From: Tubulanus polymorphus
Taxonomy: Eukaryota > Animalia > Nemertea
Direction of reading: 5' to 3'
NCBI RefSeq assembly: GCF_964204645.1
Contig: NC_134031.1
Span: 12,402,088 to 12,466,087, forward strand
DNA: 64,000 nucleotides
The notes beneath the pieces were generated by a model. That model had not been told where the DNA came from. It saw only the letters and a list, made by a program, of their open reading frames with translations, and made no database searches. This document shows, piece after piece, positions 1,420 to 63,496 of the stretch (position 1 is its first letter; each line of letters starts with the position of its first letter). The position numbers were made by a program, and so were the translations under genes.

Positions 1420-3026
1420 ATGCCACGAAAGATAAGCAATCTTAGTTCTTCTTCAAGAACAGCAAGACAGAGCAGAATCTGACGTGAATCAGCACCACAC
1501 CCTGTCAAATGGAACACAGTATGCAGACACTGTCTTGCTATGAAATAGCCTCGAGAATATCCATAAATGTGCTGTTCCTTAGGCAAAATAGCTGTTCCTC
1601 GATTACCTGAACCACCAGAAGACTTGAAGACACTTATAACAGGATCCAACCATTATCTTGAAAACATATGTCGATATAACGCCTGCTTTCAGATGACATC
1701 TTTTGTAGGCAAACGGATATTCGAGCCAGGTTATATGCCCACATTTAAAGTTCAAGGCCAAGTGTACCATTTGATTGGTTCTTTATATCCAAGACACAAT
1801 GAGCCTCCAAAATTCTGATAGATATATTTCCTTGGTGACATGCAGCAGCAGGCAATTCATCGGCTGAATTCGACATCTAACCTGAAGCGGGAAACAGTTG
1901 TCACACTGCAAAATGTCTTACATTCTGTGAACAAGTATATTCATAGTTTCAAAACAGACATGGAGAAGTTCAGTGGCCCTGACTCCCAACTTATAATACA
2001 TGCTGATAAGGTACCACAGGGTCATCATCAACGCTGCTATAATGGCCCAACAACATCGGAGGTTGCAGTGATCATGAGTGGAGGACCTGGCACCAGTAGA
2101 GACATTATTTTGGAACAGCATGACACAAAATTAAAAAGGTTTGCAGAAACTCATAATCTTATGATGCCCTTCAATGTCCTCTACTTTTTCCTCATGGAGA
2201 AGATGGATATCACTTCGCCATTCCAAGGTTTGATCCTGTCAAACAATGTGTCCAGGAAAATACTAAGACTAATGCCTTGGAATAATATGCTTACAGACTT
2301 ACGTACAGGGAGCATGATTATAATATATTTTTAAAATGTTGTGCATTGTCACAACAATTTTGGTTGGACATGTTTGCTAAGATAGAAACGGAGAGGCTTA
2401 ACTATCTTCAACATAATCAAAAAAGTTGAGAGCAGAGCAATATGTTCATTTGGGGGATGCCGGATCACAGTTCAAATGCCATTGGTCAGTAATTCTGCCA
2501 TCCACCTTTCTTGGAAGACCTAGATACATGCATGAACATTCCCAAGATGCAATGTGCTATGTAAGTTCCTATGGGAAGCCTGATCTCCGGAAACCAAATG
2601 GATTGAAATAGAACGTGAACTGTTTGAGGGCCAAAAACCAAATAACAGATATGACATTATAGCATGCATCTTTAGACTGAAGGTCAAGGCTATAATGGAT
2701 CTCATTGTTAAATTCAAGGATTTTGGTGATGTTAGATGTCACATTCATACTATAGAATGGCAGAAGCATGGTCTACCTCACGCTCATATATTGATTTGGT
2801 TTCGTTCTAAACTAAAATCAACAGATATGGACAATATTGTATCCGCCGAACTTCCAAATAATGCAACTGATCCCAACTCTTCAGCACGATCACTAAAAAT
2901 ATGAATCATGGCCCCTGTGGTAGCATGAATAATCTAAGCCCGTGTATAAAAAATGGTATGTGCACTAAGAAGTATCCAAAACCACTCATTAGTAACACGC
3001 AGACAAGTTCGGATGGATATCCTCTA
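1420..3026 (+). pseudogene. Helitron RepHel, N-terminal/Rep (HUH) part, frameshifted
   Basis: YNACFQMTSF, TFKVQGQVYHLIGSL, VILPSTFLGRPRYM, IEWQKHGLPHAHILIW (HUH motif), HGPCG, CTKKYPK, GYPL in fragmentary ORFs. Confidence 0.93.
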
Positions 3027-3792
3027 AGTAATAGGGGTAATAGGCTTTCAAGCCAAAGGTCGAACGGTCGAGCTCATAAAAAATGAAAAACATGAAAATA
3101 ATTACAATATCTACTTGAATTACTCGCGAAACTCATAAAAATGAAAAATAAATTCTCACACACTCGAATTTATTTTTCATTTTTATGAGTTTCACTCCTA
3201 ATTCAAGTAGAAATTGTTATTATTTTCATGTTTTTCATTTTTTACTCACCCGCCCGTTCAACCTTTAACCTGAAAGCCTATTACCCCTATTACTCTTAAA
3301 ATAATCATATACATGAATAACATTTAAATTGACAGATTATTCAATTTAAAAGTGTAAGCTCTTATAGAATAGATATATAGATATATTTAAAACATTATTT
3401 CAATATTCATATTTGTATGAGTTAGATTTTTAAACATTAAAAGTGTTAGTAAAGTGTGATTGAAATAATACATGATATAAATCATTGAACTTCTAAAATC
3501 AATTTTAATAAAAAATTTAGTATTAAAATGGAAGCAAATAAGTAATACTGTTCAACATGTAATATCAATATAGATAAATCCCAAAAAGCAAGACACAATA
3601 AAACTAAAACACATTTAGAGAATAAATTGAAATTAGAATATGAAGATGATATATTAGAAACTAAATTAGATGAATTAAAGAATGAAAAAGAAACATACAA
3701 ATGTGATACATGTAATCAATCATTCAGTGATAAAAGATATTATAATGAACATTTAAAATCTAAAAGTCATATTAGAAATAAGAATAATGATA
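3027..3792 (+). repeat. Polinton left TIR (766 bp); first 268 bp form an imperfect palindrome
   Basis: Reverse complement of 19605-20368 apart from about 5 substitutions and one short replaced segment. Confidence 0.95.
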
Positions 3793-3983
3793 ACTTATTC
3801 TCATTATTTAACATTAAAAATTATATCTCAGCAACAAATTTAGTGTATGGAAGTAATTTAGATGATGAAATTGTTGCGCCTAAATATAATCCTAATGAAA
3901 GCGTTTTATGTAATTGTGGAAAATATTATACTCGAGGCAATAAATCACACCATCTTAAATCAAAATATCATAACTCCAAATAG
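3528..3983 (+). pseudogene. Triple C2H2-type zinc-finger ORF sharing its N-terminus with pPolB (TAA at codon 6)
   Basis: MEANK*YCSTC...HLENK...CDTC...HLKSKSH matches the pPolB start up to the TIR end, then a unique CNCGKYY...HHLKSKYH finger. Confidence 0.7.
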
Positions 3984-3993
3984 GGAAATCAAT

Positions 3994-4019
3994 TTTAATA
4001 AAAATGTGTATTATAAATG
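3994..4019 (+). promoter_or_regulatory. Class A promoter-like motif TTTAAT-A5-7...TAAA(A)TG (also upstream of 3528/19869, 8987, 15931)
   Basis: TTTAAT starts exactly 20 nt before TAAA at four different genes. Confidence 0.65.
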
Positions 4020-4808
4020 GAGCCGGAACAATCACAAGCTATAAATATAAACAATAATGGTGTAATAAATATATGCTATAAGAAATGTAATAAGTGTGAA
4101 TTGAATAAATCATTAACAGAATTTCAAAAAAATAAAACTAAAAAAGATGGCAAACAAACATATTGCAAAAGCTGTACTAAACTATACAATAACAAATTTC
4201 TTGAAAATAATCCAAATTATTCAACACAATATTATATGGATAATATTGAAAAATTCAAAGTTAGAAATAAACAATGGAGAGAAAATCACTCAGATTATAT
4301 AAGAGAATATATGAGAGAATGGAGGGATAATAATAGAGAATATTATAAAGCGTATCAAAATAATTATAAGAAAGAAAGATATCAAACAGATTTTAATTAC
4401 AAATTGAAAAAATGTTTAAGATCTAAAGTATCAAAATTATTCAGTAAAGAAAACCACTCAGTTACACTAGCACATTTATTGGATTGTTCAGATAAATTTT
4501 TTAAATCATGGATAATATATCAATTCGATGATAAAATGAATATAAATAATTATGGCAATTATTTTCATATTGATCATGTGTTACCAATATCTAAATTTGA
4601 CATGAATGATGAATATGATAAAAAGTTAATTTGGAATTGGAAAAACCTGAGACCTCTTGAAAAGAAGGAAAATATGATTAAACATGACAAACTAGATTTA
4701 CAGTTATATTTAGAACAGTTAACAAAAGTAAAGAAATTCATTGAATTATGGAACAATAATCCAAATAATGAACAATATGTTGAATCTTTATTGAGTGTTA
4801 AAGATTAA
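4017..4808 (+). CDS. HNH endonuclease with N-terminal CxxC...CxxC zinc ribbon
   Basis: CNKC...CKSC; FHIDHVLP...NLRPL...ENMIKHDK HNH-type motif; intact 263 aa. Confidence 0.8.
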   Translation: MEPEQSQAININNNGVINICYKKCNKCELNKSLTEFQKNKTKKDGKQTYCKSCTKLYNNKFLENNPNYSTQYYMDNIEKFKVRNKQWRENHSDYIREYMREWRDNNREYYKAYQNNYKKERYQTDFNYKLKKCLRSKVSKLFSKENHSVTLAHLLDCSDKFFKSWIIYQFDDKMNINNYGNYFHIDHVLPISKFDMNDEYDKKLIWNWKNLRPLEKKENMIKHDKLDLQLYLEQLTKVKKFIELWNNNPNNEQYVESLLSVKD

Positions 4809-5049
4809 TATATCTCAAATAAAATATATTAAAAAAACAATAACTTCAACTAGCCATTATTTCTATTTTAATTTTTGATATTTTCTTTTACAATTCTTTT
4901 CAAAAGAGAATACTTTATATCACAAATAAAAAATACTAAAAAAACAATAACTAATACTAAAATTCTTTACCATTAACTAAGCTAGTATTAATCTAAAGAG
5001 ATACTGGTATCATTTTATAATACTTATATTATTTTTTTCTCTAATATAA

Positions 5050-5652
5050 ATGTCAAAGAAATCGAGTAAGAATAGTATTGATATTGAAAAAACATTAGAT
5101 GATTTGGGTATTAGTGATAATAAAGATACAGTTGTTTCTAATTCTATTCAAGTTAATAACAATATTGATTATGAATACTACTTATATTGTAAGCATCATC
5201 TTCAATTATTAATTGCTAGTGGTAAATGTAATCAGTTTATCGGGAAAATAATAACTTTTCAAGAATTAGACACTATGAAACCCGATAAAGTAATAAAATA
5301 TTTTAAGATTTATGAAGAGGCAAGATTGGCCCGAATAAATGATTCTATTTCAGATGGTATTGTCAAATGTTATTCTAAGTTATGTAACCAGTTAATACCA
5401 ATTAATGATGAAAATAAATTATATAGTGATTTAAAAAATGACTACTTAGTTATGACTGAATTACAAAAATGGGTTGGTTATGCTTCATTTCAATTAGGAT
5501 CGGTTATGACATTAATTTCTACTGGCGTCATAACATTTTCGAACATCAAGCCTACGGAATATAAATCAGGTAAGAATGAAACAGATGTACTACAACCAAA
5601 CGTCGAAACAGAAAATGAATCAGAACAAAAATTAACTAAAATAAATGAGTGA
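5050..5652 (+). CDS. Polinton hypothetical protein with hydrophobic C-terminal helix
   Basis: Intact 200-aa ORF, TAAATG start, hydrophobic segment FQLGSVMTLISTGVITF. Confidence 0.7.
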   Translation: MSKKSSKNSIDIEKTLDDLGISDNKDTVVSNSIQVNNNIDYEYYLYCKHHLQLLIASGKCNQFIGKIITFQELDTMKPDKVIKYFKIYEEARLARINDSISDGIVKCYSKLCNQLIPINDENKLYSDLKNDYLVMTELQKWVGYASFQLGSVMTLISTGVITFSNIKPTEYKSGKNETDVLQPNVETENESEQKLTKINE

Positions 5653-6013
5653 TGGAGTTAAGAAAAAGGCTAGATCCGAGAAACAAATTAAATGGGCAAG
5701 AGAATTAGGTAAAAGATCTTCAGAATTAAAAAAAGCTAAGAAAAAGAAATTAACTGATATAAATGAATCACAGACATTATCTGATATTGATTTAAATAAT
5801 AATCCATCTGATTCTTCTAATGCTGGAAGTAATTATAAATTATATATTACAATTGGATTAGTAACAGTTATTATATTATCCGGTGTAATATATAAATCAA
5901 AATTCAAATCTGATGATAAAGATGATTCCAATGACAATAAACCTATTATACCAGAAAATAAGTCAAATCATAAAGCCATTGAAACTAAATCTAAATTATT
6001 ATTAATGGATTAA
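5645..6013 (+). CDS. Small basic single-pass membrane protein
   Basis: 122 aa; K-rich N-terminus; TM-like LYITIGLVTVIILSGVIY; overlaps upstream stop. Confidence 0.7.
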   Translation: MSDGVKKKARSEKQIKWARELGKRSSELKKAKKKKLTDINESQTLSDIDLNNNPSDSSNAGSNYKLYITIGLVTVIILSGVIYKSKFKSDDKDDSNDNKPIIPENKSNHKAIETKSKLLLMD

Positions 6014-6019
6014 AGTAAG

Positions 6020-7108
6020 ATGAAAAAAGAACAATATTTAAGAGATTTATATTATAACCCAGAAAGTGAAGTATCATATTCTAACGTTTCAGAATTATGG
6101 AATAAAATTAAATCTGATAATGAAAATGGTAATATAAAATATAGTGAATTGAAATCATGGTTACAAAATCAACCAACATATCAAATCCACAAGAAAATGG
6201 ATAAAACTTATTTAACAAGAAAAGTTATGGTTTCATATATCGATCAACGATGGCAAGCAGATTTAATTGACATGAAGAACTTAGAGGAATACAACAAAGG
6301 ATATTTCTGGATATTAAATGTTATAGACATATTCAGTAGATACGCATGGTCAATTCCAATAAAAAATAAAACTGGTATAGAAGTTACAAATGCTTTTAAA
6401 TCTATATTTAAAGAAGCTATTCCAGATAAGATACAATTTGATGAAGGTAAGGAATTCTATAACAAACATTTTAAAAAACTATTATCTGATAACGATGTAG
6501 AATATTTTTCAACACATTCAGATAAAAAAGCATCTATTATAGAAAGATTTAATAAAACATTGAAAACTAGAATGTGGAAATATTTTACTGCTAATGAAAC
6601 ATATAAATATATCGATGTGTTAGATGATTTAGTGAAAGGTTATAATTCTAAACATAGTTCTATAAATATGAAACCTATACAAGCTAGAAAAGAAGATAAT
6701 TCAGAAATAGTTTGGAATAATTTATATGGAGCATTTGTTACACATGATTTTGGAGAACCTAAATTTAAAATCGGACAACACGTAAGAATATCTAAATATA
6801 GAAAAACATTTTATAAAGGTTATACCCCAAATTTTACAGAAGAAATATTCAAGATTAAAAAGATAATATTAACTAAACCATTTGTTTATAAACTAGAAGA
6901 TCTAAAAGATGAAGAAATATTAGGTTATTTCTATGAACAAGAATTATCACTTGTACCAAATCCAGATGAAATAGAATACAAAATAGAAAAAGTATTGAAA
7001 ACAAAAACTCTTAAAGGAAAAAAGTATTCTTTGGTGAAATATAAAGGATATGATGATAAATTTAATGAATGGATTTTATCTAGTAAAATTAAAAGAATAA
7101 ATGAATAA
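6020..7108 (+). CDS. Retroviral-like DDE integrase with C-terminal chromodomain (c-integrase)
   Basis: WQADL, IDIFSRY, IQFDEGKEF, IIERFNKTLK; chromodomain YKIEKVL...LVKYKGYDDKFNEWI; intact. Confidence 0.96.
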   Translation: MKKEQYLRDLYYNPESEVSYSNVSELWNKIKSDNENGNIKYSELKSWLQNQPTYQIHKKMDKTYLTRKVMVSYIDQRWQADLIDMKNLEEYNKGYFWILNVIDIFSRYAWSIPIKNKTGIEVTNAFKSIFKEAIPDKIQFDEGKEFYNKHFKKLLSDNDVEYFSTHSDKKASIIERFNKTLKTRMWKYFTANETYKYIDVLDDLVKGYNSKHSSINMKPIQARKEDNSEIVWNNLYGAFVTHDFGEPKFKIGQHVRISKYRKTFYKGYTPNFTEEIFKIKKIILTKPFVYKLEDLKDEEILGYFYEQELSLVPNPDEIEYKIEKVLKTKTLKGKKYSLVKYKGYDDKFNEWILSSKIKRINE

Positions 7109-7712
7109 AGATTTATTTATATTCGAACCGCATAATATGTTAGTTACTGGTGTAACCAATTGTGGTAAAACACATTTCATATTAGATTTGTTAGAAACTA
7201 TTTATAAGAATCATTTTGATAATATAATATTATTCTGCCCTACTTATGAAATGAATAAAACATATAATAGAGATATAGTTAAGATAAAAAAGTTTATTAT
7301 ATTAGATCCTAAAACAGTAAAAGAAAATTTAGATAATTGTATTAAAATAGCAATTGATACTTATAAAGGATCAAATACATTATTCATTTTAGATGATTGC
7401 GCAAATTTACATGATTCAAAAGTGAGAGAAAGTGAGTTATGTTATTTAGCTTTCTCCGGGAGACATTTCGGGATAACAACATGGGTTTTAAATCAAAAAT
7501 ATAATTCAATTGTTAAAGACTTTAGGGAGAATATAAGATTTCTAGTTTTATTTTATAACAAAGATAGAAAATCTATGCAACAATCATTGGAAGAAAATCA
7601 AATTATACCTACTGAATTACATGATGAATATATGAATAAATTAAAGAATAATAAAGGTTCAAAATTATTACTGAGATTACAATTTCCATATGAATATAAA
7701 TTTATAAAATAA
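7101..7712 (+). CDS. A32-like (FtsK/HerA) genome-packaging ATPase
   Basis: Walker A GVTNCGKT, Walker B FILDD, SGRH motif, NQ sensor; intact. Confidence 0.93.
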   Translation: MNKDLFIFEPHNMLVTGVTNCGKTHFILDLLETIYKNHFDNIILFCPTYEMNKTYNRDIVKIKKFIILDPKTVKENLDNCIKIAIDTYKGSNTLFILDDCANLHDSKVRESELCYLAFSGRHFGITTWVLNQKYNSIVKDFRENIRFLVLFYNKDRKSMQQSLEENQIIPTELHDEYMNKLKNNKGSKLLLRLQFPYEYKFIK

Positions 7713-8080
7713 AATTTATATACCTATTTATTAGATACCCTAATACCTGATACCCTATTAGATACCCTAATACCTGATACCCTATTAGATACCTTAAATA
7801 CTTAAAATCCCCTTTTTAAAATAAATATTATTTATACAATATTCAACCAATTTATTTTTATTTTTTCAACTAATATATGAATAAGTTTGAAAATAATAAA
7901 GGTTATTTATTATTACTGAGGTTTCAATTTCCATATGAATATCAGTTTATAAAATAAGATATTTTATGTATTAGATTGTATTAGATTGTATTAGATATGC
8001 ATTAGATACCTTAAATACCTTAAATACTTAAAACCCCCTTTTTTATTTACTATTATTTTATACAATTTTCAACCAATATT
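7645..8080 (+). repeat. Imperfect ~244-bp duplication with 27-bp and 10-bp minisatellites
   Basis: aataataaaggtt...ttattactgag...caatttccatatgaatat...tttataaaataa at ~7649 and ~7893; (cctattagataccctaatacctgatac)n at ~7723-7795. Confidence 0.75.
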
Positions 8081-8108
8081 ATTATTTGTGTTAAATATAA
8101 TTAATATC

Positions 8109-8987
8109 TTAATCACTTTCACTATCAGACCCTAACAATTTATTCAAATTCTCTACCGAATTTTCTTCTTCAAATTCTTTATTATTTTTATACTTTTTCA
8201 TTCTTTTTACCGCATCATCAATAGTTGTTTCATTGTTATGCTTATTCATCCAATCAAATTTATCATTATTTTCTACTTTATGTTTCATAGAATCTTTAAT
8301 ATCAATATGCTTATCTGTAACTATATCACCATGTGGGTGCCGTATGGCACCATCTTCATTATTATCTTTATTAGTGTTTGCTCCTTATATTTCATTTACA
8401 GTGTTTGGTTTTAATATTTCATTAGCATCGGTTAAATCTAATTCATCTTTATTAGGTGTTGCTAATAATAAATCTTTATATAATTCTTTACCATTTACTT
8501 TTTGATTTGAAACAAACTTTGTAACATATCTAAATGGGTGTTCTATAAATTTTCTTAAACCAACACGTTTTATAACATTAGTAATATGTACCTTTGTATT
8601 CATATGTTTATTCCAATTTGATGGAGCGTTTGAAAATTCACTTTTACAATATCCACAATAATTTCTATTTTCACTAACATTTAATAATATTTCATTATTA
8701 GATGTAGAAGGTATTACATTATTAGATGTAGAAGGTATTACATTATTAGATGTAGAAGGTATTACATTATTAGATGTAGAAGGTATTACATTATTATCAA
8801 TTACATTACTTAAATTATCAACAACACCACTTTTATTATTATCGATTTCTATTAGTTTAGTTTTATAAATTTTGAAAATAGGATCAAATATCAAAGCTAT
8901 ATTACAAGGTATTACATAATATAAACCATCATTATTTTCATGTGTATCGATGTATGGAATATGTTTATATACTTTACCTCCTTCCAT
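8109..8987 (-). pseudogene. Zinc-finger protein with 4x NNVIPSTS (24-bp) repeat; internal stop at 8385
   Basis: YCGYCK...HMNTKVH finger; frame stays open past the TAA at 8385 to TAA at 8109. Confidence 0.7.
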
Positions 8988-9019
8988 TTATTATATAAAT
9001 TTTTATTAAAGTTAAAATT

Positions 9020-10265
9020 TTAATACATAACACTATTCAATTGAGGATTTACAATATTTAATTGCGCGTCAGATATAATATAAATGTGCATTTTAAAATT
9101 TTTGATTCCTTTATTCTTTGTCATGAATGATTGTATTCCATCTTTAGTGTTCTGTAGTTTTTTTCCAGAACCATGTAATGAATTATCCTCTGTTGTTCTA
9201 AAATCTAACCATAATGCATATTTATTACCGGTATAATAATCAATTTGATTAATATTACAATTTTCAGATGATTTCACTTTTTCATTCATAAAATGTTTTC
9301 TAATTTCTGGCCACTGATCTATCATTCTCATTCCTTGACAAAATATTTTATTTGCTATTCCTTCGATAGTTATTTCTACTTTTGTTATTTCAGGATTATA
9401 ATAATTATCAACATTTATTGCGCCATTAGTATATGTTGCAATGGTAAAAAATATCAATATACCTTTAATAGATCTTCTTGGGAAGTTAATATTCTCATTA
9501 ATTATTTCATCATTTGCATTAATAGTTACGGTTTTAAATTTATCAATATAATCATATAATAATGAAAATGCTTGATTGTATTTAGTTTGAATTAAACTTG
9601 AAATATTTTCATCAGTTACTGTATCATATTCTAAACATATATTCGATAATTTATAACTCATATCTTTATTAACGCTAGATATTACAATTTCATTAACAGG
9701 AGCAAATGTTATTTCGAATATAACATCTTCTTGAATTGCGTATTTATATAAAGGCGCATTGTTATTTATCGATTCAAAGTCTAATGGAATTTTATATTTG
9801 CTTCCATATATACTTTTTATCAATTTATCTACAGCATTAGTTAATATTGCATTATGTGCTTCTGATCTTAATTTATTTTGGTTTTCTGATTGGATTCCTT
9901 GAAATATCATATTATTTCTGTTTTCTTTAGTTAACCATAAATCTTTATCATGCATAAATAAATTATAATCATCTAATGAGAAAACTGTTTCTGGGCCAAT
10001 CTTTATAGTTAATTTTCTAATCAAATATCTTCCAACATTATCAACATAATTATTATTATTACCGATTACTTTTATATCGGCTGATAAATAAAATACTATT
10101 TGGAACATAAAAAGTATTTTGTGTTAATCGAGGAATTCTAACGTATAAAGTTTCATCGGGATTGATATTTGAAGGGTTATGAGTAATTATATGATGTGAT
10201 CTTTCTGCATTAATAGCATTAGATATTCTATGATTCTTAGAAGGATTGATATAACTCCCACTCAT
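9020..10265 (-). pseudogene. Double jelly-roll major capsid protein (one frameshift near 10100)
   Basis: ~415-aa beta-rich ORF (NPSNINPDETLYVRIP...KIPLDF...YALWLDFRT...MHIYIISDAQL); position and size typical of Polinton MCP; homologue at 60736-61989. Confidence 0.8.
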
Positions 10266-10282
10266 TTATTTAACAAAAAAAT
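10263..10282 (-). promoter_or_regulatory. Class B promoter-like motif T4-8-N6-8-TAAATG (also 5050, 11740, 13345, 13786, 14229, 14475, 14814)
   Basis: T-run then TAAATG overlapping the start codon of capsid/membrane-module genes. Confidence 0.65.
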
Positions 10283-10305
10283 TAATTATTTATTTTTTAT
10301 CATGT

Positions 10306-11740
10306 TTACTTGATATTTTTTGATATCATGTTTACTAACCCAAAAATAATTGCACTTACAACTGTAATTAAAAATAAAATAATATGTTCAGCAGCAAAGT
10401 TAATAATGTTTCCTGCAGATTTCAATATAAAACCAACAATTGATGCAATAATTCCTGGTAATGCTGCAGCAGATTTCTTTGATAGTTCCCATAAATATTT
10501 TGCTAATTTCTTTAAACCATCCTTAACTTTATCTTGTATAGAATTATTATCATTCGGGGGTTTATCTGGTTTATTGGGAGTAGGAGTAGATTTCAGTGAA
10601 TTTGATATTGCTAAACCAATTGTTGTAAATAACATAGTTATCTTATTCTATAATAATCTTATTCTATCTTTCAATGATATTTCAGAATCTGGTTTAATCA
10701 ACAAATCTTTAACAACAACTTTTAATCTATTTATATTATAATCATATGATTTTAACAATAATTTAATTTCTTCTTTTTGTAATTCTATGTTATATTCTAA
10801 ATCATCATTTTCTTTTTCTAAATACGCATTTCTTTTTTTAAATTCGATTTCTTCAATAACTTTATTATCTCTATCTAATTTTAGTTGTTCCGATTCTTTT
10901 CTTGATTTAAATAATTCATCTTCTAAAGTTCTAATTTTTAAATCTCTTATACTTTTATCATGCGCAATTTTATCAGCTTCATTTCTTATACTAATAATTT
11001 CTCTTATTGCTTTATCAGAAAATATATCATTTAAATCTTCTAATTCTTGATCTGTTGCATCAAGTAATCCATTTGGTAAAAGTTTTTCAATTGGAACTTT
11101 ATTTGATTTAAGTTTACTAGTTTTGGAAGTTTTATTCTGTTCAGAAGTTGTTTCTGTTTCTTGATTATCATCGATTATTTTAAATAAGTCATCAATTTTT
11201 TGACTAAATACTCTTCTACTAATCATCTCTTTCTTCTTGTGTAACATCAGTTATTTCATTACTAATACTTATTCTCTTAATTTTATCTAGACCTAATTTT
11301 CTCAAAGTTGATTCCGCTAATATTTTATTTAGTTTTGTTCTTTGATCAGTGATATCAATATAATAATCTCCATCCAAACGATAATAATATTTACCTTTAA
11401 AAAGTTTTAATTTTTGTACTAAATATCTGGCGCCTCTATCATTTATATTATATCCAGACTCTTTAAATACACGTTGAAAATCATACATAAAATCAATATT
11501 TTCAAGATCTTCCTTTGATAAACCTTGATTTTCATTTTCAGGATTTATTCTCAATCTTGTTCTTCTATCAAATTCATCTGTTGATGGGGCTTTAGAACCA
11601 CTATCTGCTAAATTAGAATTATATGTTGTATCATTATCATTATCAATATTAGTTTCTGCATCATTATTACCATCATCAATATATCCTTCATTATTATTTC
11701 CCATGCCTTCCATTTCATAATCTTCTCCACCTTCAGCCAT
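10306..11740 (-). pseudogene. Acidic N-terminus/coiled-coil protein with C-terminal TM helices (frameshifted)
   Basis: ORFs 11219-11740, 10648-11247 and 10306-10635 join as one gene by comparison with 62112-63479. Confidence 0.75.
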
Positions 11741-13043
11741 TTACATAATAAAAAATTAAAATTTAAAATATAATATTCCTCAGATTACAATTCCTATACA
11801 AGTTAAAGCTAATTTAGTATTTTCATGGGATTTATTATCATCATTTAGTTTAATTATATCATGTTGAATATTATCAGTTTTTATATTTTCTGATGTATTG
11901 TAATCTTTTATTTTAGAATCATTATGCAATTTAATATGTTTAGTTTTAGTTTCTGTTAATTGAATGTGTTTTTTATTTTTTTCACCTTCCATTAATTTTG
12001 GAGCAGTAACAATCTTTTTATTAATATCATTTAATCCAAATGAATTATTTATTGTTGCAGTTTTAATTAGATTATTATAACCAATTATATTTCCCATCTT
12101 TAATACTAAATCATTAGAAATAATTAATAGATTAGGGCCTATACAATAATTTAATCTAATATGTGATTTATCTAAACAATTTTGATATCTTACAATGTTT
12201 TCTGGAATCGATCTATTTTTATCATTATGAATCGAATCTTCAAATAATACTTTGAATTGCTTCTGCCCTTCGAATGAAGTGTTATCATTTCCAATTATTG
12301 GGGATCTTCTTTCAACTTGCGCACCTAAAATACATATCAAATAAGTTCTAATAGATTGATTTATTCTTTGTATCCCAGCTTTAGTAAAACCTTCACTATT
12401 TTCTAAAATGAAATTAACCCAACCATTATTGTTTTGTTGTTGTATATTATTATAATATTTTGGTAATTCATTCCAATTTAGTGTTCTTATATCTGAATTT
12501 GCCATTATTTTTCCAAATTCTTTAGTATATAATATTACTAAATCCACCCATTGTTCCAATTTTTGCTCGAAAATCTTTATTTGAATTAATATTAAATTCA
12601 TTACATATTTTATAAAACTTAGAAAAATTAATATTATTATTCAATTCTTTAAAATATTTTGAACCTGGTAAAGGACATTCAAATTCATCTAATATTAATT
12701 TTATTTGAAAATATGTATGAAATCTAAAAAGTGATAACATCAATGGTAAACTTGGTTTGTTTAAATGATCATTCCAACTAATTCCACATCCTGTTGTTGC
12801 GCAATAAACAGCAAAATTTAATTGGTTCTGCCAATACTTCATATTAGATTTTAATAACCATTGTTTTGCCTCATTTAAATTTTTGAAATTAATTGTATAC
12901 ACATGAAATATATTTTCCATCTTTACATGAAAATTATTACTTTCAGTAACATAAATATATAAATCAATTAATGAATTTAAAACTTCATTTCTATATGTAA
13001 TATCTTTATTAAAATCTATTGCTGGAATATTACATTTAATTGA

Positions 13044-13296
13044 GGAGAGAATCCCACAATGATAATAAAAAGTCCGAAAATGAAACTTCGAGATAGTAGT
13101 TTATTTCAACGTTTCGACTATATCCTAATAGTCATCTTCAGGAACTTCATTATTCCTGAAGATGACTATTAGGATATAGTCGAAACGTTGAAATAAACTA
13201 CTATCTCGAAGTTTATTTTCGGACTTTTAATTATCATTGTGGGATTCTCTCCTCTTCGCGTCAACACGGATATAGTGTTCTACCAATCGTGATTAT
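13044..13296. mobile_element. Minimal inverted Penelope-derived insertion
   Basis: 10-bp TSD atttaattga (13034-13043, 13297-13306); ~100-bp inverted arms plus ~40-bp tail. Confidence 0.85.
13150..13197 (+). ncRNA. Minimal type I hammerhead ribozyme (mirror copy on minus strand ~13100-13144)
   Basis: ttattc-CTGAAGA-t-gactat/atagtc stem II-GAAAC-GTT-gaaataa. Confidence 0.75.
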
Positions 13297-13361
13297 ATTT
13301 AATTGATTTATTATATTGGAAAGCTTTTGGAACACTATCTGCCATTTATATAATTAAAAAA

Positions 13362-13786
13362 TTAATAATTTATTAATTCTTTTAATAATTTATCTTGTTC
13401 TTCAACTGATATATGACCATTTAAACTCATTATATAATCTAGTGTATTCTTTAATTTATTAATTTCTTTTATATTAGTATTAATTTTTTCTTTATTACTT
13501 TTTATATTTAATTTTGAACTTATACCGGTTAAAACACTTGAACTTAATCCTAATACACCAATTGATACAGCTAAAGGTGTTAATGGACTGAATATTGCTA
13601 GAAATGTTATTACAGAACTAATTGTAACAGAACCACTTATAATCAAATAATATATAATTTTACTTTTTGAATATTTTTCTTTTTTATCTTTAAGTCATTT
13701 TCAAATTCTAATATTTGTTTTTCTAAATATGTTTTTAATTTAGTTTTATTTATATCATGAGGAATAATATTAATATTATCATCCAT
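13362..13786 (-). pseudogene. Small two-TM protein (frameshifted)
   Basis: TAAATG start at 13786; hydrophobic IISGSVTISSVITFLAIF and LAVSIGVLGLSSSVL. Confidence 0.6.
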
Positions 13787-13806
13787 TTATTTAGCAAAAA
13801 AAATTA

Positions 13807-14229
13807 CTAATTAGTAAATTTATAAGCAACAAATATAACAATAACTGTTCCCCCTAAAATCCAAATTATTTCATATTTCTGTTGTTCTTTACTTGGGGTA
13901 TAATAATCTGATAATTTAGGTTTGTATAGATGTAATTTTTCTTTATTGGTTACCGCGTTGTATAAACTCATTGCATCATCAACTGATTGAAAATCTCTAT
14001 GTGAAATATTCTGATCATATAATTCTTTGTTAATATAATCCATATAGTTTTGCCTCTTTTCTCTATATTCTTCCGCAGCTTTATTGTATTTCTCTAATGC
14101 TATGTTATGTCTTTTTTGTTCGGTTAATGATCCATTTTTATCAATATGTTTAAATAAATAACCACCACCAGTAAATGCTAAAGCGTTAACAATTGCTGAT
14201 CCTATAATAGTTATAACTGCAGAAGCCAT
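13807..14229 (-). CDS. Small Polinton protein with hydrophobic N- and C-termini
   Basis: Intact 140 aa, TAAATG start. Confidence 0.75.
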   Translation of the reverse strand: MASAVITIIGSAIVNALAFTGGGYLFKHIDKNGSLTEQKRHNIALEKYNKAAEEYREKRQNYMDYINKELYDQNISHRDFQSVDDAMSLYNAVTNKEKLHLYKPKLSDYYTPSKEQQKYEIIWILGGTVIVIFVAYKFTN

Positions 14230-14253
14230 TTATTTAGTAAAATAATTATGTAT

Positions 14254-14475
14254 TTATATGGGAGGAATATATTTTTGTTTTTCCAAATAATCAATAGTTA
14301 AATTAGATAAAGTGACTGCTAATGTTAATTTTAAAATATCATTTATATCAAATCTATCAACATTAACACTTCCCATTTTAAATACTTTTTTTAATACCAT
14401 TGAATAACCAACAGTTCCAACTGATAGTAATGCGCCATTATATAATCCAGTTATTATCCACTTATTATCACTCAT
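14254..14475 (-). CDS. Small hydrophobic protein
   Basis: Intact 73 aa, TAAATG start, tightly packed in the gene array. Confidence 0.7.
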   Translation of the reverse strand: MSDNKWIITGLYNGALLSVGTVGYSMVLKKVFKMGSVNVDRFDINDILKLTLAVTLSNLTIDYLEKQKYIPPI

Positions 14476-14491
14476 TTATTTATCAAAAAAA

Positions 14492-14814
14492 TTACTATCT
14501 TCAAAATATTTAGTTATCTTATTTATGATTAATTCAACATTTATTTCATTACTAGTTTCATTTGTATATATTTCAATTATTATTTTTTTAATATCATCAA
14601 TAATTCCATCTTCATTTAATTCATAATATTCTAAAGGTGATTAAATTAAATCAATTACTTTTTCTATATTATAATTTTCTTTATTAATCATTGATGCATT
14701 GTTAAATTATTTACTTTTTATATCAGTAATTACATCATTTAGTTTAATTCTCATTTCTTTACCATGTTTAAAATCAAACCCAAAACATATACTCGGTCCA
14801 ACAGTTATATTCAT
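14492..14814 (-). pseudogene. Small disrupted ORF
   Basis: T-run plus TAAATG start at 14814 fills the gap between neighbours; frame broken. Confidence 0.45.
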
Positions 14815-14835
14815 TTATATAGTGAAAAAAATTAC

Positions 14836-15563
14836 TCATCTTATAACTAATTCATAAATAACAGGGAAATTATTTAAATCAATTAAGCGCCCATTATGAT
14901 TTCTAATTTCTAATCTAAAATTATTAAAACGAGGAATGCATGGTTTGAAATCACATTCTGTTACATTATAATTTATTTGTGTGCCAAATTCTTTAACATT
15001 CTTCAATGGTAAAATGTTTAGTAAACCAGAATTACAAGTTATATCTTCAGTTGCTTCGAATGTTTTTGTAGGATAGATTAAATTGCAATAAATATAAAAG
15101 TGTGTAAAAGGCATTATATTTGAATTACCATCTACGTTTCCTGTAACAGTATCTGGTACAATTCCTAACAGTTTAGCTATAGGTTTTTTTACCATAAATG
15201 CATGTTGACTTTCATCATATACCTTTATTTTAATTTTATTTGTGCTATCACTTTTTATAAATCTAATTAAAAATTTATCATCTCTTCTAATTTTAAACCG
15301 TACTCTTCGATTAATTTCTTGAGCTAATGTTTCTAAATTATATAATCCTGGTTTTAAAATTAGATGAAACCATTTATCTACATTTCTAATATGAATTAAA
15401 ACAGTATTATCTTTAATAGTTAATTACATAAACTTATATTAACTAATTTTAAATCAACACAATTCTTAAATTCTCTATCTAATTGTACTAGTAAATTATG
15501 AGATTTGTAATTTGTAAGTTTTCTTGAATCTACAAATATTCCGTATTCTTTTAATTCTACCAT
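14836..15563 (-). pseudogene. Minor capsid (penton) protein, frameshifted
   Basis: GLYNLE; FYIYCNLI; GLLNILPL; FRLEIRNHNGRLIDLNNFPVIYELVIR, typical Polinton mCP C-terminus. Confidence 0.8.
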
Positions 15564-15577
15564 TTATTTTACATATT

Positions 15578-15931
15578 TTATTCGAAATCTATTTCATGGT
15601 GCCCTTTTTCATTCTTACCTTTGTATACGAAATCGAAATCTCCTGAACATAATTTTTCTAGGTCTTCACTTGATAATCTATGAAATCTATCCGGTAAATA
15701 TGTTCTGAATTTATGTGTATTTCCTTTTAATCCTTCGTATTCTAAGTGTATAACTAATTTATCTCCATATTTGTTAGTAACTGTATCAATATTTGTAATT
15801 AGATATTTCTTATGGATTGTTAATTCTTTTAACTTCTTAAATTTATATTCTACTGATTTGACATTTGAAGTATCTTTTATTCTATCTAGAAATGATTTGT
15901 TGTTCTCACTGTGTGTTTGTTTACTCTCCAT
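15578..15931 (-). CDS. Small basic protein, possibly OB-fold ssDNA-binding
   Basis: Intact 117 aa directly downstream of pPolB; alternating beta pattern FKKLKEL..YLIT..TNKYGDKLVIHLE..TYLPDRF. Confidence 0.6.
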   Translation of the reverse strand: MESKQTHSENNKSFLDRIKDTSNVKSVEYKFKKLKELTIHKKYLITNIDTVTNKYGDKLVIHLEYEGLKGNTHKFRTYLPDRFHRLSSEDLEKLCSGDFDFVYKGKNEKGHHEIDFE

Positions 15932-15960
15932 TTATAATACATTTTTTTATTAAAATTTGA

Positions 15961-18900
15961 TTAACACGTTAGAATTCTTTTCATTATCTCGTTCTCTTTT
16001 GTTTCTTCTCTTTTAAATTTTAAGTATTCATCTAAATTACAACCATAAGCAACTGTATGAATTCCATCATCTAAAATATATCTTTTATCATCAAATGGGT
16101 TTAGACTTATCTTTTCAATTTCTTCAATAAACATTTCATGATCTTCAGATCTTAAACATCTCATCTTATGTTTTCTAACTTCTTCATTGAATATACAATT
16201 GATGTAATCTTTGAAATGAATATTCTTTTCTACTACACTTTTGGTTATTCCTTTTAACTTTTTAGCTTCATGTTCTTTAGTTTTATATGAATACATTTTA
16301 GATCTAATACCGATGAATTCAATCATTTCTTCACCACCTAATTCATCTTTGAATTTACCGGGAACTTTTTTATTATCATTGCTAAACAATTCATGATCTT
16401 TAGGATAATTACTGAAATGAAAATGATGTTTTAATGTTTTTAAATCATAACTGAAGCGCCAACATAGATTGGTTTATTAAATGTCATTGATGTTCTTCTC
16501 ATCTTAACTGCAGCTAAATTTTCATCAAATTTTCTGCTACCAATGAACTTAGGATATGATTGTAAATGTCTAATTCTTTTACCATTACTGACTAACTCAA
16601 TATCATTTCTATTTCTAATATTTTCACAAGTCTTACCATAGAATGCATTATTCATTAACTTGAAGAAATCTTTTTCGAAATCAGTTTTAGCTTCAGTTCT
16701 CTGTTTGGTGTTAAAATCTATATATTTTTCTAACCACTTAGATTGACTGAATGAAATATATCTATGTACTTTTTTTAGAACCATTCCTTGTTTTAGATAA
16801 AACTTTAACATTCTATAATGTACTACATAATTATATTTATCATCTTGAGTTACCATTAACTTTTCTGTATGAATATGATTTTCGGGTTTAATTCTTTTTT
16901 GGTAATTTGATAATTCTTCATGAGTTACAGTTTTATGTTCGGGACAGTAAGCTAGATTTCTAGATTTAAATTTAATATGTTCAGGATATTCTAAGTCTAC
17001 AACAAAGAAATAACCAGTATCTGAATCATCTGCAATATCTAGGATTCTTTTCTTCCAATCAAATTTATCATTATTTTCATTCTGTAAAACTTCAGTTAAT
17101 TCAAATACTCCATAAGGTTGTGGTTCCATCATTGCCCAACCATACAAATTATTTGCATCCTTATATAATAACTTATATCCAGGGTTATCATTTACATTGA
17201 AATATCTATCCCCTAATACACCTGAAAATCCTCCTCTTATAGATTTTTCAAATAATAGTAATTGATCTATATTTGTTAACAAATCCATTTTTATATCTGT
17301 AAATTTTAATCCACAATCCCATGTTAAACCTGGTGATGAATAACAATGACAAGGATCAATATTGAAATATTTTAGGTTTACATCTCTAAACCTTTCGAAT
17401 ATATCGGTTAATAATAATACATCTGATTTTAGATATGAATCTACTAATTGTCCATGATTTTCTATTTTGAAATGAATCCAAATATTCAATGTTCTATTAT
17501 ATACTTCATCTTTAACCAATTCATTTTTTTAATTCATCATAGAATTGTTCTTTTAATAATTCAGTTATATTAAAATCATTATGTGATTTATAAAATGAAT
17601 ATGGAATTGCACCTTTATATTTCATTAATTGAAAATCATCATTATTTGGGTAGTGTTGCTTTAATATTCTTAATTCATCATCAACTAATGATTTTGATAA
17701 GTTATCTAATGAACTATTTAAAAATCTATATGAATCTATAAATCTTAGGCAACCAAATTGGAATGATATATAATTCTCAGATGTTTTAGCTAACATTCTA
17801 AATTTATAAGTTGGTATTTTATCTTTTGATCTATTTGAATTTAATCTTTCTATTTCATTATTAATTTCTTCTATTTTATGGCATAACTGTTTGATGAATA
17901 AATGTGCATCATATCCTGATAGATTATGAAATATAACTGGTACAAAATTAATTTTCTTAGCTTGTAAGTTACAATTCTCATGCGCTGCGCCTCTAAACTT
18001 TCCATTCAAATGATCATGGTCTCTTACTTTTTTATCTTTATAATTAAATATCTTTTCACAATAATAACATTTATCTGCAAACGCAAATTCTCCTTTATCT
18101 TCTTCTGTGATTATAATTTCTATATTTGTATTCAATAATTTACTAAATCTTATTTCATATTCAATTAATAAGTCACAAAAATGATTGATAACATTTTCAT
18201 TTCTACAATCATAATATTCACTTTCAATTAGTTCTGGATAATCAGATTTTATATATAACCCGAAAGCAGCAGCTGATTGATGAATCTTTTTAATAGTATT
18301 TGTTATTGGTGGTTTATCTGAAAAATCATTTTCATTAGAATTTAATTTCTTTCTTTTATAATATATTTCTTTTCTATCTTGATCGGTTAATTCTTTATTT
18401 AATGATTCAAAATCTCCATATATAACAAATGGAACTTTATTTTTGTAATCATATTTTTTGAATTCTAATATTTTATCCTTTTCATTTGGTAAAACTAATT
18501 TACAGTAATCATGATTTTCACATAATTGTTTATGATTTAATAATGTACTTTCATTACTGAATTTATGTAAAAAATTTTCTACATAGATATATTTTATTAT
18601 GGTGATCACTTTCTGTTCTAAAGAATAAATCTATTTGTTTAATCCACATATAATGATTCTCATAATATAATATATCTATAACATCATTTGAATCATAATC
18701 TTTTGATAGGTATAAAGGTTCTAATGTATAATGTTTTATATTGTTACCTTTTGTATTTAGTAATTTGATTAAATCAAATACATTTATCTTTATATTATTA
18801 TCTCTTTCTATTTTTGGGATGTTTTTAATTATAACAGGATACTTATCTATCTTATAATTATCTTCAAATGGTTTATAATGAGTTAATCTAAAACTATGTT

Positions 18901-19869
18901 GTTTATAATCTTCAACTGGGTGTAAACAACTTATTATAGCCCATAGAAAACATTTATCATCAAAATTTTGTACATTTATTACAGCATTCGTTTTTAATGG
19001 TAGTTAAATATAACTTGATGCTTCAATATCTGGTTCTTTATAATATGATACATTATTTTCATCAATTGGTTTTGATTTAGTTAACTTATTATATTTTGTG
19101 TTATAAACATGTAAAGTCATAAATATTATTTCATCAAATATTAAACCAGATCCTTCAAAATATTTCTTTTCTATTTTAGTTTTTACTTCATTATAAAATC
19201 TATCTAATTTATCATCTATATGTTGTTTTGAAATAATATGTTGTGAATGAGAATTTATATTATATATTGGTTTATCTTCAGATTTTATGAATTTAACTTT
19301 AGAAGATATACTTATTTTAGGATATTCAACATCAGTTATTATTTTTATTATTTCTTTCATATTTTCTAAATGTTTTTTATTTTCTTCTAATGTTTTTCCT
19401 TTATGAAATATAAACTCAATAGCTGCTGGACCAATATCACTTTTAAATGCTTCGGTTATCTCTATATCTTTTTATTATCCAATAAATTAATATATTTTCT
19501 TACATCTTCCATGTATGGTCTTTTATTGTTTAATTTATTTTTTATGCTTTTAATTGTCTTCTGTTTCTTATCATTATCTTCATCAAAATAATCTTCACCT
19601 AAAATATCATTATTCTTATTTCTAATATGACTTTTAGATTTTAAATGTTCATTATAATATCTTTTATCACTGAATGATTGATTACATGTATCACATTTGT
19701 ATGTTTCTTTTTCATTCTTTAATTCATCTAATTTAGTTTCTAATATATCATCTTCATATTCTAATTTCAATTTATTCTCTAAATGTGTTTTAGTTTTATT
19801 GTGTCTTGCTTTTTGGTATTTATCTATATTGATATTACATGTTGAACAGTAGTACTTATTTGCTTCCAT
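15961..19869 (-). pseudogene. Protein-primed family B DNA polymerase with N-terminal zinc fingers, OTU-like Cys protease region and endonuclease VII-like insertion; several frameshifts
   Basis: Exo I VIYGDFES; Exo II FHNLSGYDAH; YLKSDVLLL; YKDANNLYG; KLMNNAFYGK; GKFKDE; RSKMYS. VINVQNFDDKCFLWA...ENHY at ~18650-18990. CYYC...VRDHDH...GAAHENCN. Confidence 0.95.
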
Positions 19870-20368
19870 TTTAATACTAAATTTTTTATTAAAATTGATT
19901 TTAGAAGTTCAATGATTTATATCATGTATTATTTCAATCACACTTTACTAACACTTTTAATGTTTAAAAATCTAACTCATACAAATATGAATATTGAAAT
20001 AATGTTTTAAATATATCTATATATCTATTCTATAAGAGCTTACACTTTTAAATTGAATAATCTGTCAATTTAAATGTTATTCATGTATATGATTATTTTA
20101 AGAGTAATATGGGTAATAGGCTTTCAGGTTAAAGGTTGAACGGGCGGGTGAGTAAAAAATGAAAAACATGAAAATAATAACAATTTCTACTTGAATTAGG
20201 AGTGAAACTCATAAAAATGAAAAATAAATTCGAGTGTGTGAGAATTTATTTTTCATTTTTATGAGTTTCGCGACTAATTCAAGTAGAAATTGTAATTATT
20301 TTCATGTTTTTCATTTTTTATGAGCTCGACCGTTCGACCTCATAAAAAAGCCTATTACCCCTATTACT
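19605..20368 (-). repeat. Polinton right TIR (764 bp)
   Basis: Reverse complement of 3027-3792; contains the pPolB start codon. Confidence 0.95.
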
Positions 20369-20374
20369 CCTCTA

Positions 20375-23730: not shown

Positions 23731-23773
23731 ACACGACGTTTCGATCTCACCCTAGAGATCATCGTCAGGTGTG
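23731..23773 (-). ncRNA. Minimal hammerhead ribozyme in Penelope pLTR
   Basis: acac-CTGACGA-t-gatctc/gagatc-GAAAC-GTC-gtgt; the plus-strand copy (~25744-25785) has GACAC in place of GAAAC. Confidence 0.75.
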
Positions 23774-24842: not shown

Positions 24843-24849
24843 AAAATTT

Positions 24850-57785: not shown

Positions 57786-59358
57786 TTGTCGGATACCGGT
57801 ACTCGCTTATATCACGATCACATTTATATCACATGAATACTGATGGTCCAGAATTTTCTCCTCTTTTCTCTTTTCTGTTCCGACCCTTTTTTTCTGGCTG
57901 TAAATCGATGATCCATTTCAACAGTCGTTATTCTAGTTGTGAGAGTATATTGGAAAAAATAAACCCGAAATATTTCAGTATTTTTAATCATATCTTGTAG
58001 ATATGGATTAAATTTTTCCGTTTACAGAAATTAATTGGAAGTCGTATAGTTTTTGGAAACGGCTGGAAATCGGAATTTTTCGAAGTCGAAGGATTTGACT
58101 TGGTCCCAAAAGATCCAACTTACGGAAGGCTTTTAAACTTCGGATAAACCGTCGAAATCACTTTTCAATTGTAAAACTAGTTATTCATAGCTCAGGAAGT
58201 CGGAAGAAACCCCACTTCATCTCTCTTTACAGATTTTGGCACTGGAAATTATTTTTTTAAATGTGTTTTAGCTACCCCACTTAACAACGAGTCAATATGT
58301 TTAATGGATGGCTGAATTTTTAAATGTTGATGCTATGTATGTTGCGCTCATCTTAATCACTTTTCTTAACATTTAGGCTAAGTAACATCACGATGTGAAT
58401 GCATTACATGTCATATTATGATTGAAACAATAAAAATAAATTCATGCTTTAAAATATTTCGTGTGGGGCTTACGTCGAGTACTTCAGTAATTATCATTAA
58501 ATGATATGATAGAATGCCAGAAAAATGCATGATATGTGTAGGGCTGAACAGGTCATTCATATGTTGGGCTCTGCATCAAAGATCTGGTCTGCAGCAGCGA
58601 TGTGGGGCCTCGAGATATTGCATTAGAAGCCTTGGCAGTACATAGAAATCGATCTGCAGTCTGGGCCGACCACAATTAGATATTTTTCCTTCTATATATT
58701 TGAGATATTCGCCCAACGGTGTTGTCTTCCAGTCAAAACTATACATGCATAAACTACTCAACTAAAATGTTGAACTAAAACCCAATACGATAACGTGAAC
58801 TTCGGAAATTGATGTCGGGGAATTTTACATATGTAGGCCCTAGTCGTATAAGGAATCAAGTATGCTGCATCGAATCGATCCTATTCCTTTTCAGCAATGG
58901 AAATACAACGCTATGGTCTTATTTGAAAATATCTTTATTGACATGTAAATATGCACAAAATCTGTAGAGATATGATTAATTCTCGATGACTACAACATTA
59001 ATACATATGTGTCAAACCTACGATGGAGAACCGAAACATTTTTTTCTCAACTATTTTTTCATTTTCTGACTGGTCCCCTGTTGTACAACCATGGACTCTT
59101 AGAGACAACATGCCATGCAACAGAAATAATCTATACTCACAATGGTTGTTACGTGGTATGGCATTGATGAATATTCCGACACTTTTGATAATTACAGCAC
59201 AAAATTAATCTTTTACACGGGGGTCATTTTAAACTATGTACGATATACATGTACCTGAGGTTGATAGAAATTCGAAAATAACTGAATCTACATGGGGGAA
59301 TCAATATATACCTTGTAGACAAATGGCCATTTAACATCATTATCAATACATAACATGG

Positions 59359-59577
59359 TACTGTTTTAGGATCTAATATAATAAATTTATTATTTCTAGT
59401 AATATTTCTATCATAAGTTTGATTAAATTCATATGTTGGACAAAATAATACTATATTATCAAAATAGTTTTTATAAACAGTTTCTAATAAATTTAATATA
59501 AAATAAGTTTTTCCACAATTTGTTATGCCAGAAATTAACATATTATGAGGCTCAAATATAAATAATTCCTTATTCAT
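59359..59577 (-). pseudogene. Packaging ATPase, truncated after ILDPKTV
   Basis: GITNCGKT Walker A; homology to 7101-7712 stops at ~59359. Confidence 0.88.
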
Positions 59578-60705
59578 TTATATATTTTTAATTTTACTTG
59601 ATAATATCCATTCATTGAATTTATCTGGCCATCCAACCCATTTTACTAAAGAATATTTTTTTCATTTAACAGTTTTTGTTTTTAATACTTTTTCAATTTT
59701 ATGTTCTTGTTCTAGATTTTCAGTGGTTAAACTTAATTCTTCTTCGTAAAAGTAACCATCAACTTCTTCACCATTTAAATCTTCTAATTTATAGACATAT
59801 GGTTTTGTTGTTATTACCTTTTTTATTTTATATATTTCTCTAGTAAAATTTCGATCGTATCCCTTGTAAAATATCTTTTTATACTTGGAAATTATAACAT
59901 TTTGACCAACTTTAAATCTAGGTTCACCAAAATCATCTACAAGAAATGCTCCATATAAATTATTCCAAACAATTTCAGCATTTTCAGGTTTTCTAGCATC
60001 GATAGGTTTCATTCCAATAGAAGAATGATAAGAATTATTATATCCTTCTATCAATTTTGGTAAAAGATCAATCCATTTAAAAGTATTATTTGCTGTGAAA
60101 TATTTCCACATTCTTGTTCTTAATGTTCTATTAAATCGTTCAACAACTGCTGCTTTTTTATCCGATTTTGTTGAAAAATATTTAATATTATGATTGTCTA
60201 AGAGTTCATGAACAAGTGAATTATCAAATTCTTTTCCATCATCAAATTGTATTCTTTCTGGTTTTAGTTTATCATCCGAAAGAAATTTTCTTAAAACATT
60301 TGATGTTTGTGCAGCATCTTTTCTGTAAAGTGGGAAGCTCCATACATAACGACTAAAATATCAATTTTATTCAATATTCACCAATAATCATCATTATCTT
60401 TCTTAACATTTTTCATATCAATTAAATCTCCTTGCCACTGTTGATCTACATAACTTACCATAGTTTTACGAGTTTTATATTTTCTAACAATTTTTTTATG
60501 TGTTGTATATGTTGGTTGTTCTAACATAAATTCATTTATATCTTTATATTTAACTAAATTTTGTGGGATTATCTTATATAATTTATCTTGTTTTACTTGA
60601 CGCCATATATTTTTGGTAGAAGAATAAGCAACCGAACTCTCAGGGTTGTAATATAAATTTCTTAAATATTGTTCTTTAGTATTAGGAGTTTTTTTTACCG
60701 CCCAT
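59578..60705 (-). pseudogene. Chromodomain integrase, frameshifted
   Basis: WQGDL, IQFDDGKEF, VVERFNRTLR, LVKWVGW..KFNEWI. Confidence 0.9.
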
Positions 60706-60735
60706 TTATATATCCTTAATTTTAACTTTATATTT

Positions 60736-61989: not shown

Positions 61990-62019
61990 TTATTTAACAA
62001 AATAATTAATTATTTATTT

Positions 62020-63479: not shown

Positions 63480-63496
63480 TTACATAATAAAAAAAA

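Follow-up and report, generated by a model that had tools for sequence, protein, structure and literature searches.

The window analysed here, a stretch of 64,000 nucleotides from the nemertean Tubulanus polymorphus (NC_134031.1, 12,402,088 to 12,466,087), holds at 3027-20368 a decayed but complete Polinton of 17.3 kb, inserted in Helitron-like DNA (recognised by a PIF1 helicase match) and with a GC content of 24% (76% AT) against 33-42% in the flanks. Repeat comparison delimits terminal inverted repeats (TIRs) of about 770 bp that are 99% alike and end in 5'-AGT, the left one at 3027..3797 (plus strand), where read ends also fall at 3027, and the right one, with the mirror hairpin, at 19600..20368 (minus strand). 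They are flanked by the target-site duplication CCTCTA, an identical hexamer at 3021..3026 and 20369..20374 (plus strand). Polinton/Maverick elements characteristically have 5'-AG ends and a 6-bp target duplication, and both are found here together with long TIRs, an rve integrase, an A32-like packaging ATPase, a pPolB polymerase and a double jelly-roll (DJR) major capsid protein (MCP). The genes for pPolB, MCP and several other proteins are broken in this copy.

On the plus strand, the element encodes an HNH/endonuclease VII-like protein (4017..4808; PHROG 1035, E 1.6e-16), a conserved 200-aa protein shared with outgroup elements and known from homologs in other loci (5050..5652), a 122-aa protein with a hydrophobic stretch (5645..6013), the rve integrase with a chromodomain (6020..7108; Pfam PF00665, E 1.7e-9) and the packaging ATPase (7101..7712; Pfam PF04665, E 1.4e-12). 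The other genes lie on the minus strand. They begin with a zinc-finger gene (8385..8987) that a homolog search found only in loci of an AT-rich subclade, followed by the MCP gene (9020..10265, in two frames here), identified through a relative, P0001 (73% identical), whose AlphaFold model (pLDDT 85) matches DJR capsids in Foldseek with an E-value of 8.5e-15. Two conserved genes recognised from homologs are both in pieces: one with a hydrophobic C-terminus (10306..11756; 485 aa in the related locus L003) and one of 442 aa in L003 (11780..13361), which is interrupted by a palindromic insert (about 13042-13254) resembling a miniature inverted-repeat transposable element, with a match at 33-79 of the window. 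Small hydrophobic proteins are encoded at 13362..13803 (two frames), 13807..14245 (140 aa) and 14254..14491 (73 aa), and a broken acidic gene lies at 14476..14831 (126 aa in L003; only four representatives were found).

The penton-family candidate (14836..15585, two frames) belongs to a family of proteins of 213-277 aa with 15 members among the loci and viral Atlas neighbours; its own model is poor (pLDDT 39) and a PDB search gave no match. A putative single-strand DNA-binding protein (SSB; 15578..15931) has Phi29_Phage_SSB as its nearest named Atlas cluster (score 0.84), a weak lead only. The pPolB gene, with N-terminal zinc fingers, is spread over six pieces (15961..19869) that are 38-44% identical to intact open reading frames (ORFs) of about 920-1300 aa in relatives. 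Pfam and PDB scans gave no polymerase match for pPolB; the sequence does contain motifs that we take to be of polymerase type. As a candidate pPolB start in L003, ORF 11054 matched at an E-value of only 0.034.

Nearly all of these genes share one start context. The original prediction was that 14 of the 17 ORF starts of the element read TAAATG, that pPolB (19869) and its copy in the left TIR (3528) read TAAAATG and that the integrase (6020) alone lacks the motif, and our recount agrees on each point. The 17 starts comprise 16 independent ones plus the TIR copy, whose ORF stops after five codons. TAA precedes the ATG at 14 of the 16 independent starts; elsewhere in the element it does so at 43 of 730 ATGs (Fisher p 5e-15).

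Upstream of these starts lie two kinds of tract, at the positions that had been proposed. In class A, TTTAAT begins exactly 20 nt ahead of TAAA at all four genes named in the original prediction: the HNH-like gene (3994..4019, plus strand, with TAAATG), ORF 8987 (8985..9010, minus strand, conserved in L001, L002 and L005), ORF 15931 (15929..15954, minus strand) and pPolB (19867..19893, minus strand, with TAAAATG and within the right TIR), the last being copied with its TAAAATG in the left TIR (3504..3530, plus strand). This arrangement occurs at 4/16 starts and at none of the 730 other ATGs, and the word TTTAATAAAAA is found five times in the element, every time at a class A start or the TIR copy. 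Those at 4017 and 15931 share 85% of a 46-nt stretch that takes in the first codons, so these two may be copies and not independent instances. Class B consists of a T-run followed by TAAATG and is present at the eight starts listed for it, namely ORF 5050 (5034..5052, plus strand), MCP (10263..10281, minus strand), 11740, 13345, 13786, 14229, 14475 and 14814 (8/16 starts against 4/730 other ATGs). Given TAAATG, the T-run is seen at 8/14 starts and at 4/43 other sites (p 6e-4). Three TAAATG starts fall outside both strict classes: 5645, where the motif lies within the upstream ORF; the ATPase (7101), where it lies inside the end of the integrase gene; and the penton-family gene (15563), with a degenerate promoter. 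All three were assigned to the A-type by unsupervised clustering.

To place the motif among relatives, an MCP alignment was made from 41 of 120 listed homologs, and 80 of 115 confirmed metagenome loci were fetched along with two genome loci. Among 52 MCP start contexts, TAAATG is present in 13 of the 14 closest loci and in none of the 38 others, some of whose starts are uncertain. In a quick MCP tree of 44 rows, the TAAATG loci make up one side of a branch with 98% SH-aLRT support. The unbiased count is an automatic one over five conserved genes with five near-copy loci excluded: TAAATG stands at 26/28 starts of this clade, 0/23 starts of outgroups below 38% GC and 1/49 starts of GC-richer outgroups. 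The motif is kept across the clade and is absent from AT-matched outgroups, which supports this part of the original prediction. Clade members at 36-44% GC retain TAAATG, which argues that it is not compositional. At position -3, 66/72 outgroup starts have a purine and 26/28 clade starts have T.

Of 74 starts curated by hand, 16 in the window and 58 in 13 loci, 68 read TAAATG and one TAAAATG; this set omits fragments, ORFs on the opposite strand and starts internal to broken genes. The TAA is the in-frame stop of a long upstream frame at only four of the 68 TAAATG sites, and divergent gene pairs carry TAAATG on both sides. Judged from these sequence comparisons, TAAATG is not a Kozak, stop-start or TATA artefact. 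A T at -3 is hard to explain as translation context and is to be expected if it lies outside the mRNA, as it does in poxviruses.

Clustered without supervision, 69 starts fell into an A-run class of 28 and a T-run class of 41, with a two-class gain of 95.6 against a maximum of 52 in 60 column shuffles, a gain that is inflated by the relatedness of orthologous promoters. Counted from the T of TAAA, the class A core runs from about -21 to -11. Of the 61 non-A starts, 92% have T at -12 relative to the ATG, the peak position; among non-start TAAATG sites the figure is 34/101. In published accounts, vaccinia late promoters carry a conserved T ten bases ahead of TAAAT, while intermediate promoters are without that T and are AT-rich further upstream (PMC11980589); the intermediate core is placed near -20, with a 12-bp spacer to TAAA (PMC12917281). 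As in vaccinia (PMC11980589, PMC12917281, PMC5294985), the Polinton clade joins TAAA or TAAATG to the ATG, with an AT-rich core near -20 in one class and a T peak about 10 nt upstream in the other, and the vaccinia packaging ATPase A32L is intermediate as the Polinton ATPase is A-type. Both classes fit the vaccinia intermediate and late spacing, as given in the published descriptions, within one or two bases; to this extent the notion of two poxvirus-like promoter classes is borne out. Unlike vaccinia promoters, these sit in an integrating 17-kb element without a recognised RNA polymerase, and the class A word TTTAATAAAAA is tighter than the vaccinia intermediate core, described as consensus-free. 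In five back-to-back gene pairs of the clade (L001, L009, L010, L011, L012), the 19-30 nt between ATGs are filled by two TAAATG units, and in most such pairs one A/T tract is the T-run for one gene and the A-run for the other.

We therefore favour, with a probability of roughly 0.6, the reading that the promoters are used by a pox-type helper polymerase in two post-replicative waves and that the element is a satellite. With TAAATG and A- or T-rich tracts at nearly every gene, the lineage likely borrows a pox-type helper RNA polymerase, and scans of the element ORFs and their intact homologs (Pfam, PHROG, NCBIfam, PDB) gave no match to RNA polymerase, TBP or TFIIB, although a few small ORFs stay unassigned. 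The window element also has no Sputnik MCP Pfam match, that is, no virophage-type capsid; it is a Polinton that probably works like a provirophage, not a virophage sensu stricto. The integrated copy would be silent on its own, and upon helper infection its DNA would meet the post-replicative machinery of the helper. In vaccinia, the post-replicative stage is the only one known to be open to DNA outside the virion core. A-type genes (pPolB, SSB-like, zinc-finger, packaging ATPase and some penton genes) would be transcribed first and T-type genes (major capsid and membrane proteins) later. RNA synthesis would begin inside the AAA, with slippage adding a 5' poly(A) leader, so that a T at -3 of the ATG would be tolerated; in poxviruses, transcription starts within TAAAT and slips (PMC4542343). 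The element would then replicate with its own pPolB, package its DNA in its own capsid and re-integrate.

The original prediction also split the classes by function, with DNA-related genes in class A and the capsid and membrane module in class B. Strict class A is indeed enriched in DNA-related or zinc-finger genes (7/19 starts against 1/55 others, p 2e-4), although three of the seven cases are orthologs of one gene. Clade MCPs are mostly T-type. As a rule the split fails: the A-type class also contains the packaging ATPase (5/5 clade ATPase starts with TAAATG are in the A-type cluster) and a penton-family gene.

A number of observations weigh against the helper reading, and several of them concern this split. 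In L003, the penton-family gene is class A, and the SSB homolog and a deoxynucleoside kinase (dNK) gene are class B. T-type sites predominate among HNH homologs elsewhere, and relatives often have them at SSB, HNH, integrase and dNK genes. Loose clustering gives no split, with DNA-related genes at 7/28 in the A and 9/41 in the T cluster. The vaccinia capsid homolog D13L is intermediate, while the Polinton major capsid is T-type. Several A-type sites fall in coding DNA; these and the two-way tracts of the back-to-back pairs suggest that geometry may account for some of the loose A class. Very short divergent spacers occur in outgroups as well, so compactness is not diagnostic by itself, and some AT-rich outgroup starts read TAAAATG (L023, L034). 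Coding AATAAA is not depleted anywhere: its observed/expected ratio (O/E) is 0.95-1.04 across window, clade and the two outgroup sets, and with no nuclear control this ratio does not separate nuclear from cytoplasmic transcription. TTTTTNT has an O/E of 0.37 in the clade; we rejected this depletion as evidence of an early terminator because T- and A-runs are depleted generally.

Further points of the same kind concern the helper. None was found in IMG/VR, where the class A pattern had 47 matches, all single, of which 41 were not at an ORF of at least 100 aa (six were), and where no locus had mostly TAAATG ORFs. Searches with the HNH protein (13 matches) and the dNK (38 matches) returned no named poxvirus protein, most of the matches being unnamed. 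Given how abundant the family is in the genome, germ cells would have to have been infected by the helper again and again, and the reading leaves unexplained how a copy in the nucleus would meet a cytoplasmic polymerase.

The strongest rival, which we regard as unlikely, is that a compact clade-specific promoter, similar to those of poxviruses in appearance only, is read by host RNA polymerase II, perhaps steered by a factor of the element (zinc-finger ORF 8987 or acidic ORF 14814). High copy number suits ordinary germline transposition, and ORFs 8987 and 14814, both unassigned, were seen in clade loci only; against this, the family scans that found no TBP, TFIIB or polymerase (Pfam, PHROG, NCBIfam, PDB) offer it no factor, and scans of ORF 14814 gave no TBP-like match. 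A TATA box places the start site 25-30 nt downstream, so class A acting as one would put it inside the ORF. The T at -3 runs counter to the start context of the outgroups, and a second lineage, L131, has the same signal.

We give somewhat less credence still to a reader that is not a poxvirus or is gone: some related element that resides in the cytoplasm and has a pox-like polymerase, much as pGKL2 serves pGKL1 in yeast, or an ancestral satellite phase of which the pox-type promoters are a relic. The decay of the window copy and the failure to find a helper in IMG/VR suit it, as do the TAAAN initiator and slipped poly(A) leaders of the yeast virus-like elements (PMC6211774). Set against that, the motif stands at nearly all starts across MCPs that are 52-84% identical and loci of 20-44% GC, which implies long selection, and the two-class layout has the vaccinia spacing and not the yeast upstream element. 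Last, a compositional or post-transcriptional pattern (AT-rich context, stop-start coupling or upstream poly(A) signals) is very improbable and largely refuted by the outgroup controls, for although the element is 76% AT and AATAAA overlaps the start at 30/68 TAAATG sites and lies within class A, AT-rich outgroups have the motif at 0/23 starts, GC-richer clade loci retain it, the TAA closes a long upstream reading frame at just 4/68 sites, and the motif is also found at divergent genes and in the TIR, where there is no upstream gene.

Regarding the copies of the element, 2017 DNA reads run from its left end (3027) into dissimilar flanks, and the depth of the family in the DNA read run is several-hundred-fold (counted with no single-copy baseline); given this depth and the many distinct flanks, we take the Polinton to be a multi-copy family. 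The terminal 268 nt at each end (3027-3294 and 20101-20368) form an imperfect palindrome and fold up as a single long hairpin with bulges (-97 kcal/mol, z -25), and shorter variants of the hairpin are present among the DNA reads. A second family member, recognised by homology to the first copy, is rearranged and decayed and runs off the window (59224..64000, minus strand); it has TAAATG at MCP, the ATPase and the 11740 homolog, and also just before the integrase match. The block 3640-4695, with the HNH promoter and most of that gene, is missing from many copies (253 joint reads and a dip in depth), so the HNH cassette is variable. In L003, the dNK (10343-10981, minus strand; Pfam PF01712, E 1.7e-31) lies behind a T-type promoter and has four close homologs at 60-100% identity, all unnamed. 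Elsewhere in the window, a retroelement-like fragment forms a large inverted duplication (897 nt, 97%) at 23653-25863, and a 61-bp tandem array lies at about 57250-57800.

Among known systems, the entomopoxvirus-associated polinton-like viruses, proposed to be hyperparasites of poxviruses (Barth et al. 2024, PMC11296320), resemble our element as small Preplasmiviricota elements with an A32-like ATPase, two of them with capsids beside the mavpol2 clade. They differ in being about 12 kb long, lacking an rve integrase, having a protease and coming from occlusion bodies. The main text of that paper, supplements aside, never mentions 'promoter', 'motif' or 'TAAAT'. Mavirus and the endogenous mavirus-like elements (EMALEs) of Cafeteria are likewise integrated elements with rve and pPolB, and differ from the Polinton in their protist host, virophage-type capsid, single late motif and experimentally shown helper dependence; the promoter motif varies with the EMALE type, and induction was confined to the type whose motif matches the late one of the helper (PMC10945749).

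Maverick/Polinton elements and adintoviruses share with ours the TIRs, 6-bp duplication, pPolB, rve integrase, ATPase and DJR capsid (PMC8502044); in the present element, unlike in those, no protease was recognised, and the clade has its own TAAATG code. The words 'promoter' and 'helper' do not occur in the text of that paper. The linear elements pGKL1/2 of yeast also start genes at a TAAAN initiator, and differ in having no capsid or integrase, a polymerase encoded within the pair and a different upstream element (PMC6211774). Our literature search, which left supplements and subscription papers aside, found no report of poxvirus-type promoters in Polintons.

Scans of IMG/VR with MCP and ATPase gave no relative, nor did the phage collection, and the pPolB scan led to three loci. 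One of these, L131 (1-9034), has a different ATPase and a GC content of 38%; TAAATG stands at 7/7 of its main ORFs, with 11 such sites in 328 ATGs, and its pPolB does not group with that of the window in a 9-row FastTree. Its rve integrase, to which a protease-like N-terminus is fused, had no match beyond itself, and no capsid gene was recognised on the contig (1-9034). Family scans of the window element gave no match to the adenain maturation protease, and Pfam also missed this protease-like N-terminus of L131. Another locus, L130, combines a virophage-type capsid (Sputnik MCP Pfam, E 4e-41) with a pPolB that is 41% identical to that of the window; it is without the TAAATG pattern. In L017 and L020, the sister group in the MCP tree, TATA stands at most 16 nt before the ATG at 13/16 hand-picked starts (against 32/717), a start that resembles the late motif of African swine fever virus (PMC11788076) and may point to a different helper. 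The TATA starts of this group (also L015 and L043) are often preceded by a T-rich word. A bolder and more tentative generalisation, to which we lean less than to the helper reading itself, is that the promoter code of each Polinton clade names its helper: this clade and L131 would use both post-replicative waves of an undiscovered invertebrate poxvirus, L017 and L020 carry an asfarvirus-like TATA start, and some animal Polintons would be endogenous satellites of DNA viruses that replicate in the cytoplasm.

Two questions about animal Polintons have long stood open: how their genes are transcribed, and whether to regard them as transposons, as autonomous viruses or as satellites. A clade-wide poxvirus-type promoter code makes that of transcription testable. 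Mavirus is a known case of an integrated satellite with borrowed promoters, and two helper stages, if used, would exceed the single late motif described there. The code leads one to expect a pox-type virus, as yet unknown, in the host group; promoter motifs may also serve to match Polinton clades to their helper viruses, as for EMALEs. If the bolder generalisation holds, such Polinton copies could act as inducible antiviral provirophages in animals.

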